Part shown: in pieces, positions 361-8,925 of the stretch
How the letters are laid out: every line of letters starts with the position of its first letter
Numbering within the stretch: the first letter of the stretch is position 1
Origin: a virus
Lineage: Duplodnaviria > Heunggongvirae > Uroviricota > Caudoviricetes
IMG/VR virus record: IMGVR_UViG_2681813316_000018
Length of the DNA stretch: 8,925 nucleotides
Strand: one strand, 5' to 3'
The notes under the pieces: generated by a model
What the model was told of the DNA's origin: nothing
Database searches by the model: none
Seen by the model: only the letters and a program-made list of their open reading frames with translations
Made by a program: the position numbers and the translations under genes

Positions 361-1113
361 CTATCTTGTCACTTTTCTCAATTGCGATTCAGCATACGCT
401 TCTTCCTGCCAGCACTTTGTAACCAGTTTATTAATAACGTCTGCATATCCTTTGTACCACTGATAATCCGTCAGGTCCGGTACCAGTTTCTGGACATGAT
501 GCCGCGCCAGTGTGGTTGGTAAACGGCTAAACCGGTTGCCATTGCAACGCCCACAAATCTTATAAACAGGCACACCATGAAGCCGGGTTCTTTTTTCATC
601 CAGGACAATACCTTTACCCTTACACCCTCTGCACGCTGTGCTGACTTCTCCCTTACCATGGCAATGCTGACATAGTTCCTTCACCCACTCTTCCTTGATA
701 ACAGATTCCCCGCTTCTGGAGTGTTTCACCACTTCGCGCAATACATTATGAAATCCAGTACCAGCACAATGCTCACAGCGAGCCTTACTTGCCGCAGACC
801 TGGAATAATCAGCAAAGGCAAAATTCACAAGGTAAGGGATGATCTGTAACCGGATTTCTTCACTCAATTTGTTCAATGTCGGGTTATCCAGTGCCATCGC
901 GTAATTGAGCAGACCTTCAATCGCAAACTGAGGGTCCTGAACGCCAACTTTTGCCAGGAATAAGGCAAACCCAAGCGGTGCTTTCGACTGCACCATCCCC
1001 TGCGCAGCCATTACATCCGTAATTGTTAAACCACCCGAGCCTGTCGCCGGTGCGTCATCGCTCAGTTTTGGAGATTTCGGGGAGTAATATTTCGGTAAGG
1101 CTTCAAGGTTCAT
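361..1113 (-). CDS. Late-gene antitermination protein Q (QuuQ-like, 250 aa)
   Basis: 250-aa ORF; CxxCxGxG-type zinc-finger repeats (CEHCAGTGF, CQHCHGKGE, CRGCKGKG); SD GGAGA 7 nt upstream of ATG at 1113; last gene of the early operon, immediately after a DUF968-like gene as in Qin (ydfU-quuQ). Similarity to QuuQ is recalled, not searched. Confidence 0.75.
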   Translation of the reverse strand: MNLEALPKYYSPKSPKLSDDAPATGSGGLTITDVMAAQGMVQSKAPLGFALFLAKVGVQDPQFAIEGLLNYAMALDNPTLNKLSEEIRLQIIPYLVNFAFADYSRSAASKARCEHCAGTGFHNVLREVVKHSRSGESVIKEEWVKELCQHCHGKGEVSTACRGCKGKGIVLDEKRTRLHGVPVYKICGRCNGNRFSRLPTTLARHHVQKLVPDLTDYQWYKGYADVINKLVTKCWQEEAYAESQLRKVTR

Positions 1114-6003: not shown

Positions 6004-6252
6004 TTACTTTCCATCTGATAAGTCTTTAATCTTTTGAAAAATATCTGGACGTAATTTTTCTTTTGATACGCCAGTGGTCATTTCAATAAATATCGAGAGC
6101 TTTGCAGGGGGACGCTTTTCTCTGTTCAAACAGTTCCAGACATGTTGTTGCTTTACTAAACGACCACTGCTGGCTGTGAGCTTCCGAGCCAATTCTGATT
6201 GACCACCAGCCAGAGCGATTGCCTCTGATAAGGCTAATTGCTCAGGTGTCAT
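6004..6252 (-). CDS. Cro-like HTH repressor (YdaS/Cro family)
   Basis: 82 aa; SD AGGAG 6 nt upstream; motif AGGQSELARKL...LRPDIF matches the YdaS/Cro-family pattern as recalled; divergently transcribed from the CI-like gene across an operator-rich spacer. Confidence 0.8.
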   Translation of the reverse strand: MTPEQLALSEAIALAGGQSELARKLTASSGRLVKQQHVWNCLNREKRPPAKLSIFIEMTTGVSKEKLRPDIFQKIKDLSDGK

Positions 6253-6389: not shown

Positions 6390-7076
6390 GTGAAAACATT
6401 GGCAGAAAGACTAAAAAGCGAAAGAGAAAAAGCAGGAATGAGTCAGGCGCAACTAGCTGAAAAAATTGGGCTTTCACAACAATCCGTAGCGAAAATCGAG
6501 AATGGAGAAACTCAACAGCCTCGGAAAATTAAAGAGATTGCTAAAGTGTTAGGGGTTTCTCAAAAGTGGTTGCAATTGGGAATTGAGGATAACGCGTCTT
6601 TCCCAGACCTTGTTGTAAAGGAGGCTGAAAGTACAGCATTAGATCCTGACATTTTTGCAAACATTCCAGTCCTAGATGTCGAGTTATCAGCGGGTAATGG
6701 ATGTTTGGCTGAAATAGTTGAATCAACTGTAGACTGGTTCCCGCTAAGAAGGATTGATTTAAGAAAAGCTGGTGTATGTGTCTCCAATGCAAAGATCGTA
6801 AAAATTTGGGGCAATAGTTTACTACCTGTACTTAACAATGGAGATTTTGTTGCTGTTGATGTTTCCCAAACGGTTCCTATTCGTGATGGGGATCTTTATG
6901 CCATACGTGATGGCGTATTACTTAGAGTTAAAATATTGATCAATTTACCTGACGGTGGTCTGATTCTAAGAAGTTTCAATAAAGATGAGTATCCAGATGA
7001 AATACTCACCTTCGAAGATAGGCGTTCCAGAATTCACGTTATAGGTAGAGTATTCTGGTCATCGCGCACTTGGTAA
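6390..7076 (+). CDS. CI-like prophage repressor (N-terminal XRE-type HTH, C-terminal S24/LexA-like autopeptidase)
   Basis: 228 aa, GTG start with SD GAGGGGGA; HTH (MSQAQLAEKIGLSQQSVAKIENG); Ala-Gly cleavage site (LSAGNG); Ser (WGNSLLP) and Lys (LRVKIL) catalytic-dyad positions as in LexA/lambda CI. Confidence 0.85.
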   Translation: MKTLAERLKSEREKAGMSQAQLAEKIGLSQQSVAKIENGETQQPRKIKEIAKVLGVSQKWLQLGIEDNASFPDLVVKEAESTALDPDIFANIPVLDVELSAGNGCLAEIVESTVDWFPLRRIDLRKAGVCVSNAKIVKIWGNSLLPVLNNGDFVAVDVSQTVPIRDGDLYAIRDGVLLRVKILINLPDGGLILRSFNKDEYPDEILTFEDRRSRIHVIGRVFWSSRTW

Positions 7077-7261: not shown

Positions 7262-7317
7262 ATAAAGTTGTTGACAACAACCAAAACAACAACTAGATTA
7301 CAACTTAAAGATGTTGC
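7262..7317 (+). promoter_or_regulatory. OL/pL-like operator-promoter driving the leftward (plus-strand) early operon
   Basis: Perfect 7-1-7 inverted repeat GTTGTTGACAACAAC (7267-7281) containing a consensus -35 TTGACA (7271-7276); -10-like TAGATT 17 bp downstream (7294-7299); CAACTTAAAGATGTTG (7301-7316) nearly identical to the OR site CAACTTTTAGATGTTG. Confidence 0.6.
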
Positions 7318-7409
7318 AGTAACGAACAGGCAGGACGCCCACGAAGTAGCCGCCGGTGGCGTATGAATGACCGGATGATTCGTTAAATACTATGTGTAAG
7401 AGAGCACAA

Positions 7410-7613
7410 ATGAACAGTTATTTCACATGCTCGTTTTGTGGCGCAAACGAGCTGCAGGCAAAAAAAATCATCGCCAAAGGCGGAAAAGATGAAGTTGCTA
7501 TCTGCTCTGAGTGCGTAGTCTTGTGTGTCGGGGCATTAATCAATATCAGCACAACTATTCGGTTCACACCAAATGAGAATGCGCCTTTAGATACGCTGAA
7601 ATCTGGAGGTTAA
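7410..7613 (+). CDS. Small protein with ClpX-type C4 zinc finger (zf-C4_ClpX-like), first gene of the pL-like operon
   Basis: CSFCG...(about 20 aa)...ICSECV matches the ClpX N-terminal zinc-binding domain pattern (E. coli ClpX: YCSFCGKSQHEVRKLIAG...YICDECV). Start placed at ATG 7410 (weak SD GAGAG) rather than 7392 (no SD); either is possible. Confidence 0.6.
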   Translation: MNSYFTCSFCGANELQAKKIIAKGGKDEVAICSECVVLCVGALINISTTIRFTPNENAPLDTLKSGG

Positions 7614-7702
7614 AGAACAAAATGAAAGTCCAGATTTTAAACAATAACTGTGAAGTCGTTTGGGCGTAAAACATGACCGCGCGTAGACCAAGGGAGGAAA
7701 AA

Positions 7703-7879
7703 GTGGGAATAGTTAGAACTCAAGCAGATATATTGAAAATCAGCTCTGAATTGCTTGGAGTTTTGAAAAGTGAGCTCACCGCACATGGCATCGAGCCCAC
7801 TGACGAAAATTTAAGTTGGGTTTTGTCGATTATTCAACAATCACTCAAGCCCAGCCTCAGCAAACTTTTTATCGAGTAG
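7703..7879 (+). CDS. Hypothetical small protein (59 aa from GTG 7703; 68 aa if ATG 7673 is used)
   Basis: Strong SD GGGAGG 6 nt upstream of GTG at 7703; no recognised domain. Confidence 0.4.
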   Translation: MGIVRTQADILKISSELLGVLKSELTAHGIEPTDENLSWVLSIIQQSLKPSLSKLFIE

Positions 7880-8139
7880 TGCTTCGAACTATCGTAAAGC
7901 TTGCTTATGTCGTCTATCGGGTTTTCTGACGTACTGTAATTTTTATCTGATGTCATGGCAGCAGTCTGATATGCAGTGCGAGTCTTAACCGATAGTTGGA
8001 ATAAATAAAGAATTTTTCTTCTTTGGTCATAACTATTTCCTTCTTGGCTATATGAAAACACCAAGATACCACCGAGCCTGAAGTGGTGAAAAGACAGGCA
8101 CATAACAGCTAAGTATTTTCAACCAAAAAGAATCCTTAG

Positions 8140-8450
8140 CGTTGTGGTGAATGCGGCTCAGCGCACGCGGGTTAAGGTTGAGGCTGACAGTCGACCTTCT
8201 GTGGATACCCACCCGCCTGGTGTGCAACCTTCGCCAGGCACCGGGAGGCACCCGGCACCACAACTTTATGCTGTGTGTAGTCCTGGCGGTACCAGCTTGT
8301 ACCCTTGCTTCCGGCTGGTACCGTCCTTTTTACAAAACAGAGAAGAGCATCACCGGACGACGGGCTCATAACCCAATCCATCCGGGCGGCTGCCACCGCA
8401 GGTGTTCTTCTCTGTTTTGTGGAGAAACTAATCGGCCTTGCAGGGTCGAT
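8140..8450 (+). other. GC-rich, highly self-complementary non-coding segment (candidate structured RNA or cis-regulatory element)
   Basis: Sharp rise in GC relative to the flanking AT-rich sequence; open frames on both strands translate to Arg/Pro/Cys-rich, non-protein-like sequence; several perfect stems (8215-8239, 8241-8255, 8285-8325). Confidence 0.3.
8285..8331 (+). terminator. Intrinsic (Rho-independent) terminator in the leftward operon
   Basis: Perfect 10-bp stem cggtaccagc (8287-8296) with gctggtaccg (8314-8323), extendable by G.U and G-C pairs, loop about 15 nt, followed after 1 nt by TTTTT (8327-8331). Confidence 0.5.
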
Positions 8451-8470
8451 ATGATGAGGAGCAGCAAAAT

Positions 8471-8831
8471 GGCTAGCGAACGCAGTACTGATGTGCAGGC
8501 ATTTATCGGGGAGCTGGACGGCGGCGTATTTGAAACCAAAATCGGCGCAGTTCTCAGTGAAGTCGCTTCCGGTGTGATGAACACGAAAACCAAAGGTAAG
8601 GTCTCGCTCAACCTGGAAATCGAACCGTTTGATGAGAACCGTGTGAAAATAAAACACAAACTCTCATATGTTCGCCCGACTAACCGCGGGAAAATTTCCG
8701 AAGAAGACACCACCGAAACGCCGATGTATGTCAATCGCGGTGGTCGTCTGACTATTCTGCAGGAAGACCAGGGACAATTACTGACTCTTGCCGGTGAACC
8801 TGACGGAAAACTCCGCGCAGCAGGTCATTAA
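8471..8831 (+). CDS. Hypothetical protein (120 aa) of the leftward early operon
   Basis: SD GAGGAG 7 nt upstream of ATG 8471; protein-like composition from MASERSTDVQAFIGELDGG onward; the ORF-track extension back to 8151 is Arg/Cys-rich junk within the GC-rich structured region. Confidence 0.55.
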
Positions 8832-8896
8832 TATCGTTCTTAATTAACTGATTATTTATCTCATCACTGAATATCTTTATATAGTGAGGACTTATT

Positions 8897-8925
8897 ATGT
8901 CTCAGAACTTAGACGCAACCGCAAT
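8897..8925 (+). CDS. 5' end of a further gene (MSQNLDATA...), truncated by the window edge
   Basis: ATG at 8897 preceded by SD GTGAGGA with 6-nt spacer; only 9 codons visible. Confidence 0.3.

Follow-up and report, generated by a model that had tools for sequence, protein, structure and literature searches.

STnc100 and PasD are described, in two reports that concern them, as abundant Hfq-bound small RNAs (sRNAs) of prophages in other strains (bioRxiv 10.64898/2026.05.13.724894; PMC12370729), and the put RNAs of phage HK022 are ~70 nt long, form two stem-loops and adjoin the early promoter (PMC9378689). Here we report on a stretch of 8,925 nucleotides from a virus of the Caudoviricetes (IMG/VR record IMGVR_UViG_2681813316_000018; 'the window' below means this whole stretch), in which a GC-rich island at positions 8140-8450 lies between the early-left promoter pL and the gene yfdP. 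The island is a real RNA element, structured and non-coding, and has the same strand as the pL operon. It is ordinary-looking and mis-annotated, a promoter-less, pL-embedded variant of a known prophage RNA family that stays below the Rfam threshold, and window 8142-8331 (+) is related to STnc100/PasD as a divergent member. On balance, we favour the reading that this promoter-less member of the family gives a ~190-nt RNA from a short pL transcript and that its terminator attenuates the operon.

The island stands out by its composition, as an earlier note made from the letters of the window had remarked (GC 0.55-0.60 in 8101-8400 vs 0.39-0.42 on the upstream side), and the three stems named there (8215-8239, 8241-8255 and 8285-8325, the last followed by UUUUU) are all present, the last being an intrinsic terminator within the early-left operon (12-bp stem 8285-8296/8314-8325, U-tract 8327-8331). 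Other features had escaped it, namely a closing helix (8141-8149/8256-8264), the hairpin P2 (8153-8168), a pseudoknot and a 25-bp hairpin (8327-8351/8401-8425). The + strand folds better than shuffled sequences over 8123-8334 (z = -2.66) and over 8326-8475 (z = -6.06), which the minus strand does not (z = -1.34). The note had seen no match to a tRNA, REP/BIME or tmRNA pattern, but the element does match a known family: a permissive search with Rfam RF02076 (STnc100) aligned 8123-8334 (+) over model positions 1-206, a full-length though sub-threshold match with 41.7 bits and E = 1.4e-7 that takes in the window terminator. At the curated gathering thresholds (47 bits for STnc100), Rfam gave no match in the window, nor a gathering-level match in ST64B, mEp460, L014, L069 and L090, which carry the window's subtype; copies in late regions score 57-161 bits. 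A covariance model built from alignment A1 of 43 family representatives (model R1) scored 79.7 bits (E ~1e-20) at 8142-8265, on the + strand only, with scores similar to that of the window for SfV and ST64B and a weaker one for mEp460 (26.5 bits). Helices P1, P2, P4 and P5 of the element align column for column with STnc100.

The features of the core, the tail and the terminator are as follows.

8141-8149, pairing with 8256-8264, + strand: 5' strand of helix P1, GUUGUGGUG, an inverted repeat of 9 bp at 100%
8150-8168, + strand: junction AAU followed by hairpin P2 (GCGGC-UCAGC-GC-A-CGC, 8153-8168), from the covariance-model alignment
8169-8214, + strand: P3, GGG 8169-8171 with CCC 8212-8214, enclosing a variable insert; 3 of 3 pairs covary
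8174-8180, + strand: pseudoknot strand a, AAGGUUG, with its partner CAACCUU at 8225-8231
8215-8222/8232-8239, + strand: hairpin P4, 8 bp, -13.3 kcal/mol; all 5 modelled pairs covary
8241-8245/8251-8255, + strand: hairpin P5, CCGGG-AGGCA-CCCGG, 5 bp, -7.7 kcal/mol
8265-8284, + strand: single-stranded 20-nt tail with the motif UGCUGUGU (8269-8276), a candidate seed or Hfq site
8285-8331, + strand: intrinsic terminator, 12-bp stem 8285-8296/8314-8325, 17-nt loop, C and U5, -23.0 kcal/mol

The core comprises 124 nt (8142-8265, +), in which five helices are arranged around one junction and joined by a pseudoknot. Comparative folding, the check that the earlier note had proposed, was carried out with 107 distinct relatives, and the helices are backed by compensatory changes: 97.4% of cells were paired vs 85.9% in shuffles, 18 of 25 pairs showed double-sided changes, and slid controls reached at most 48.4% paired. 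This alignment was fitted to the model, which favours the model, but an independent MAFFT alignment yielded the same helices with RNAalifold. Double-sided changes were seen in 4 pairs of P1, for which other Enterobacteriaceae carry GCGGUG/CACUGC or AUGAUG/CAUCAU, and in 4 of the 5 pairs of P2 (99.6% paired; CCCC/GGGG, CUUUC/GAAAG, GCGG/CGC), whose loop motif CUNNGCG is common to the family and whose stem sequence is subfamily-specific. P5 is followed directly by the 3' strand of P1, CACCACAAC (to 8264), and together they form a near-invariant family signature that is invariant in alignment A1; mEp460 has a variant P5 loop, AGAUCAGCA. As for the pseudoknot, a strand starting 0-2 nt after P3 is complementary across relatives to the P4 loop, which holds strand a' (8225-8231). 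The mean complementary run was 6.94 nt vs 4.90 for shuffled strands, with runs of at least 7 nt in 61% vs 9.4%, and more than 15 different complementary pairs back it (for instance, CCAGUC/GACUGG, CUGGUGU/ACACCGG, ACUGGAU/AUCCAGU and AGACUGACAAA/UUUGUCAGUCU). ST64B, which does not keep a competing local hairpin, has a pseudoknot identical to that of the window. The window and ST64B are 77% identical overall, yet every helix and the pseudoknot are intact. The conserved fold goes far beyond what the label 'small regulatory RNA' of the family would lead one to expect.

The family was traced by its signature 20-mer CCGGGAGGCACCCGGCACCA, which occurs in at least 120 IMG/VR contigs; these yielded 114 distinct elements, which fall into 59 clusters at a distance of 12%. 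The complete island together with the start of yfdP is present in 1823 of 5426 complete Escherichia coli genomes (about a third). A species-level genome scan with the 15-mer CCGGGAGGCACCCGG gave ~9 real occurrences among the 120 matches listed, all in Enterobacteriaceae; the others were mostly chance matches in high-GC genomes, because a 15-mer is too short. The P1-like phage-plasmids SJ46 (99118-99247) and RCS47 (77135-77263) are ~71% similar to the 5' half of the window core, and phage P1 itself (63681-63712) matches this half over 32 nt at 94%, so the subtype extends beyond lambdoid phages. The element is not present upstream of yfdP in CPS-53 of E. coli K-12, where direct repeats of GATTTTGACGGGTCA-like units stand in place of the leader (L126, 5380-5560) and homology to the window starts only at the yfdP ribosome-binding site. 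A literature text search for the core sequence matched only a PCR primer, and the literature on ST64B sRNAs was uninformative for the element. PasB was considered as the same element and rejected, as it lies among structural genes.

Copies of the family were located in several genomic contexts: of 134 copies, 95 belong to late regions, and another 20 have a cI-type repressor on one side and yfdP/yfdQ on the other. The late copies stand downstream of Q (two unrelated Pfam families) and upstream of three holin families, lysozymes or a NanS esterase, often in tandem, with arrays of 3-5, and adjoining tRNA genes. They typically have their own terminators and a promoter TTGACn-17/18-TAAATT (8-10/12 match at a fixed distance) whose -10 ends 8 nt before UGGUG, indicating that transcription starts at P1. 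A terminator follows the core on its 3' side in at least 85 of the 134 copies. The possibility that the late copies are Q-loading pR' leaders was rejected, since an 82-type pR'-tR' unit with a ~70-nt leader lies directly after Q and is separate from them. With their own promoters and terminators, their tandem arrays and their separation from the pR'-tR' unit, the relatives are mostly independent RNA genes, in agreement with the report of STnc100/PasD as abundant Hfq-bound sRNAs. A stable phage non-coding RNA and a 3'-UTR-derived sRNA, two options raised in the earlier note, both fit what these relatives are.

Particular arrangements were also seen among the relatives. Tandem arrays of 2-5 STnc100-type genes, ~250-480 bp apart, occur in L012, L021, L029, L066, L083, L008 and L020; each gene has a -10-like TAGGCT/TACAGT and one or two terminators, and the arrays lie directly beside phage tRNA arrays. 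In L014, L058 and L069 the copies have the window's P2 subtype and are flanked by portal and terminase genes. A strong promoter, TTGACA-N17-TAATAG, which overlaps the palindrome TTACCAnnnTGGTAA (a likely operator), lies ~170 nt upstream of these copies, and they are followed by small moron open reading frames (ORFs) with their own terminators.

The copy in the window differs from these genes by its setting. The window comes from an SfV/ST64B-type lambdoid prophage, whose immunity and early region it shows in reverse orientation, with the following features.

361-1113, minus strand: Q gene (Pfam PF03589)
ending near 6252, minus strand: cro-like gene
6390-7076, + strand: cI-like repressor gene
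7271-7299, + strand: pL promoter TTGACA-17-TAGATT with operator repeats, 10/12 match
7392-7613, + strand: 73-aa ClpX-type C4 zinc-finger protein (PF06689), the first gene after pL
7673-7879, + strand: unannotated 68-aa ORF with an arginine-rich N-terminus (MTARRPREEK)
8469-8471, + strand: start ATG of yfdP, with its Shine-Dalgarno (SD) sequence GAGGAG at 8456-8461

The operator repeats of pL are also present in the cro-cI intergenic region, and with this operator-bearing promoter at 7271-7299 the + strand downstream of it is the 'leftward' operon. Transcription from pL starts at ~7306, with the core ~835 nt downstream of it, and the operon order is the ORFs 7392-7613 and 7673-7879, an AT-rich spacer, the island, yfdP, yfdQ, yfdR and a PrtN/excisionase-like gene. 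A promoter scan found no promoter-like site in 7400-8925, leaving pL as the only such site upstream of the island, and the best sigma-70 match upstream of the window copy (6/12) was at background. The element has no ORF and no promoter and lies inside this operon. As to the gene start that the earlier note had placed at 8471, the SD sequence and the ATG are real, but the ATG occupies 8469-8471 and 8471 is its G. Neither an N-like gene nor a boxA/boxB site is evident downstream of pL, as had been noted. ST64B and mEp460 have no counterpart of the ORFs 7392-7613 and 7673-7879 and no ORF at that place. The AT-rich spacer carries on the minus strand an 89-aa ORF (7834-8103) and, in another frame, a 25-codon ORF (7957-8031) with a good SD sequence (AAGGAAAtagttATG at ~8031), both unannotated in the closest genome.

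In the closest genome, the terminator at 8285-8331 is the only strong + strand terminator from pL to the operon end. A simple terminator scan misses the hairpin 8285-8325 because its loops were limited to at most 8 nt. At this position ST64B and L090 have different hairpins with U-tracts, so that the structure is kept and the sequence is not, as also in the Citrobacter phage phiNP. The tail motif UGCUGUGU stands just 5' of the terminator in the window, ST64B, phiNP, L014, L058 and L069; a search within the window for a phage target of this motif gave none above chance. phiNP (L249, 2326-2462) agrees with the window in its pL leader, in the tail motif, in the terminator and in the hairpin behind it, but in place of the STnc100-type core it carries an unrelated insert, which the same P1 helix closes (UUGUGG...CACAAC).

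Absence of a promoter, the place downstream of pL, the only strong terminator and the conserved UGCUGUGU together suggest an RNA gene captured in the early-left operon, as a module of the 124-nt junction core locked by the pseudoknot, the 20-nt tail with its motif and the intrinsic terminator. Transcripts from pL would cross the two small ORFs and the AT-rich spacer and largely end at 8331, and the last ~190 nt of this short transcript would therefore be the kind of RNA made elsewhere from stand-alone genes; the AT-rich spacer would permit trimming to ~190 nt. No other strong stop stands between pL and the yfdP operon, so the terminator would attenuate expression of yfdP-yfdQ-yfdR and the excisionase-like gene behind them. 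In the read-through mRNA the U-tract would be buried in the 25-bp hairpin, a probable site of RNase III action or translational control before the yfdP ribosome-binding site. From this arrangement we infer that a discrete RNA accumulates, that the operon is attenuated and that the transcript is processed, and by analogy with STnc100/PasD the RNA of the window would be expected to associate with Hfq.

Several points weigh against this reading. The Rfam gathering score is not reached, and the RNA of the window copy is predicted here from its sequence. The short U-tract (5 U) and the long loop (17 nt) make the efficiency of termination uncertain. The core and the attenuator may be separable, because in phiNP the core is replaced while the tail, terminator and hairpin stay. 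An sRNA that acts by plain base pairing would not require a 124-nt core with junction, pseudoknot and invariant loops, and calling the element an sRNA may therefore fail to capture its real function. Finally, the place of the subfamily in the pL leader is kept in the diverged window, ST64B, mEp460 and L090, which could mean a dedicated role in cis.

Downstream of the terminator stem lies a second domain, with the following features.

8327-8425, + strand: 25-bp stem 8327-8351/8401-8425 that includes the U-tract, with a three-way junction inside
8362-8374, + strand: arm GGG-CUCAUAA-CCC, a copy of the initiator-tRNA anticodon stem-loop
8431-8438/8443-8450, + strand: small hairpin; ST64B has a different hairpin at the same place

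Of this domain 39 pairs are kept in 4 phages, and 4 pairs show double changes; ST64B, phiNP and mEp460 preserve its stem and arms, with compensatory changes. L090 has at the same place a long hairpin whose sequence is unrelated, with the same UGUGGAGAnAC motif behind it. A perfect stem of this length so close to a ribosome-binding site suggests control of translation or processing by RNase III. In an arm of the domain, CGGGCUCAUAACCC (8361-8374) is identical over 14 nt to the anticodon arm of the initiator tRNA metY. In the Klebsiella phage RCIP0034, a relative of the second domain stands right after tRNA-Asn and tRNA-Arg, downstream of Q, and has the ends GGCCUG...CAGGCC-ACCA; it was not called by ARAGORN or the Rfam tRNA model. 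The resemblance of the second domain to tRNA may reflect descent or mimicry.

Other explanations of the island were weighed against the captured RNA gene. The core could be a sensor, a riboswitch-like aptamer or a host-factor site, that sets read-through of the terminator and makes the early-left genes signal-dependent. Its five-way junction, pseudoknot and invariant junction and loop nucleotides have the size and complexity of riboswitches, and the frequent terminator behind the core and its constant position in the long untranslated pL leaders that several phages have would suit such a role; however, a non-exhaustive inspection of the tails and terminators of the 59 clusters showed no conserved alternative pairing with the invariant 3' part of the core, most copies are self-contained tandem genes with their own promoters and varying downstream genes, and a search of all Rfam families (E up to 10) gave no known riboswitch class, so that we consider a sensor unlikely. 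Somewhat less likely still is that the island imitates a tRNA, with the core as the acceptor/T-arm/D-arm half and 8327-8425 as the initiator anticodon arm, acting as decoy, sensor or processing signal for RNase P, VapC-like anticodon nucleases or the 30S P site. P1 (7-9 bp) abuts P5 (5 bp) in the manner of an acceptor stem on a T stem, and the identity of CGGGCUCAUAACCC to metY, the place of the RCIP0034 relative and the STnc100 genes beside tRNA arrays point the same way; against it, neither ARAGORN nor the Rfam tRNA and tmRNA models (E up to 10) found anything in the window, the P5 loop has 5 nt vs 7 in a T-loop, and the likeness could be functionless descent from a decayed tRNA gene. Just as doubtful is a passenger remnant, in which an RNA moron was recombined in and lost its promoter and only the terminator matters, as an insulator. 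Such a history would account for the mosaic joints on both sides, for the terminator and hairpin kept with another core in phiNP and for the absence of the whole leader from K-12 CPS-53, but it fits poorly with helices and a pseudoknot that are all intact at 77% identity between the window and ST64B, and with a complete element in 1823 of 5426 complete E. coli genomes.

We regard it as very unlikely that the core acts in cis as a put- or EAR-like RNA of processive antitermination, modifying RNA polymerase to pass this terminator and later ones. In its favour, an N-like gene is absent, the operon is blocked by a strong terminator and the element is transcribed before this terminator; against it, the relatives stand alone as genes, and their RNAs, which have ends set by terminators of their own, accumulate as sRNAs. 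The put-like option of the earlier note was dropped, since the family covariance model has no match in the HK022 early region and the relatives are independent genes rather than operon leaders: HK022 22000-40751 gave no R1 match and no match to the 20-mer at up to 3 mismatches, the putL and putR sequences, read directly, showed no relation to the island, and the short, two-stem-loop, promoter-adjacent put RNAs (PMC9378689) differ from it in size, fold and position. A better candidate stands at a put-like position, at 7321-7383. Least of all do we believe in a decayed or unrecognised protein-coding gene, even though PGAP calls a pseudogene at 8144-8454 and an open frame (8151-8831) runs in phase with yfdP. 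The ORFs 8144-8371 and 8151-8831 were not found in a collection of 15 billion proteins, in which YfdP (120 aa, from 8469) has more than 1000 contigs. Between the window and ST64B the core differs in length by 1 nt, the loop of the terminator by 20 nt and the stretch from the terminator to the ATG by 1 nt. The frame is not kept: the window, ST64B and mEp460 share no ORF across the region and differ in ORF starts and boundaries, and the substitutions are compensatory in RNA helices. Homologous prophages, checked as the earlier note had proposed, carried no intact gene over the region, an outcome that speaks against the decayed gene and leaves its non-coding call standing. The 'hypothetical protein, frameshifted' of RefSeq/PGAP at window 8144-8454, L002 3045-3355 and L247 7945-8255 is thus a structured RNA that is systematically mis-annotated, as is likely the case in many E. 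coli genomes.

Put RNAs suppress downstream terminators through the beta' zinc-binding domain. In the window, the ~62 nt right after pL (7321-7383, +) are 81-100% conserved in all yfdP-type phages (SfV, ST64B, phiNP and many IMG/VR loci) despite differing immunity regions, and their stem shows compensatory changes (CCGGU/ACCGG, CCUGG/CCAGG, CCCGG/CCGGG). The segment lies at the putL position and shares CGAAC(A)GGC and GGAUGA, but not the topology, with HK022 putL/putR; a second copy, as a putR analogue, was not found in the window. It is a candidate nut/put-like antitermination site, and a better one than the island. A different pL-proximal hairpin, CGGCGUAUG-GCA-CAUGCGUCG, is present in mEp460 (L004, 2615-2650) and on the reverse strand of L090 (3755-3790); its 3' strand equals nucleotides 27-35 of HK022 putL, and both phages have untranslated GC-rich leaders of 350-600 nt before the STnc100-type core. 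The N-less SfV/ST64B-type phages offer a testable case of polymerase passing an early terminator, with the core and 7321-7383 as candidates.

A subfamily invisible at the Rfam threshold stands at the only strong terminator of an operon leading to excision functions. Because the conserved fold is so complex, with a five-way junction and a pseudoknot as in riboswitches and ribonucleoprotein (RNP) scaffolds, the filing of the family under Hfq-bound sRNAs may be incomplete. More speculatively, and with rather low expectation, the STnc100/PasD family could be a folded receptor RNA (an aptamer, an RNP scaffold or a tRNA mimic) that works here together with the anticodon-arm mimic. If so, enterobacterial phages would use the family in two ways, within the pL leader and as constitutive genes in tandem next to their tRNA arrays, and in the window it would sense or neutralise a host factor (for instance, a defence nuclease directed at tRNA, or part of the machinery of transcription or translation), gating the early-left genes at lytic onset.

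Compared with known systems, the element shares with phage late-region tRNA genes and tRNA-like structures the neighbourhood of its relatives, the acceptor/T-like stacking of P1 on P5 and the copy of the initiator-tRNA anticodon stem-loop in the second domain, but the window copy has no cloverleaf and no CCA end. HK022 putL/putR likewise place a structured nascent RNA upstream of terminators in an early operon without N protein, although they form a V-shaped stem-loop pair with a triplex at +3 of pL, whereas the element of the window is a 124-nt multi-helix junction ~835 nt from pL whose relatives are independent genes. In lambda 6S and StxS (pR'-tR') and in IsrK of Gifsy-1, one promoter also gives a short terminated RNA and a read-through mRNA, and the short RNA can act in trans; these RNAs are promoter-proximal and structurally simple, and isrK matches lie elsewhere in ST64B and mEp460. 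The Rfam families isrK and C4 antisense RNA stand side by side in ST64B (L003, 405-593, minus strand), mEp460 (L004, 323-511, minus strand) and L063 (2471-2669), in the rightward operon near an antirepressor-type gene as in Gifsy-1; the window has no such pair. Relative to STnc100 and to PasD1/PasD2 of enteropathogenic E. coli, the window copy stays below the gathering score, has another P2 stem sequence and no promoter of its own, and lies in the pL operon upstream of yfdP, not between Q and lysis genes. The Rfam consensus structure of STnc100 as aligned is without a pseudoknot, and in the excerpts of the preprint, which gives RNAalifold consensus folds, we found no description of a pseudoknot or a five-way junction (bioRxiv 10.64898/2026.05.13.724894). 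In all of them the helices P1, P2, P4 and P5, the signatures GGUGAAU and CCGGGAGGCACCCGGCACCA, the tail with an intrinsic terminator, the total length of ~190-210 nt and the enterobacterial lambdoid prophage hosts are alike.

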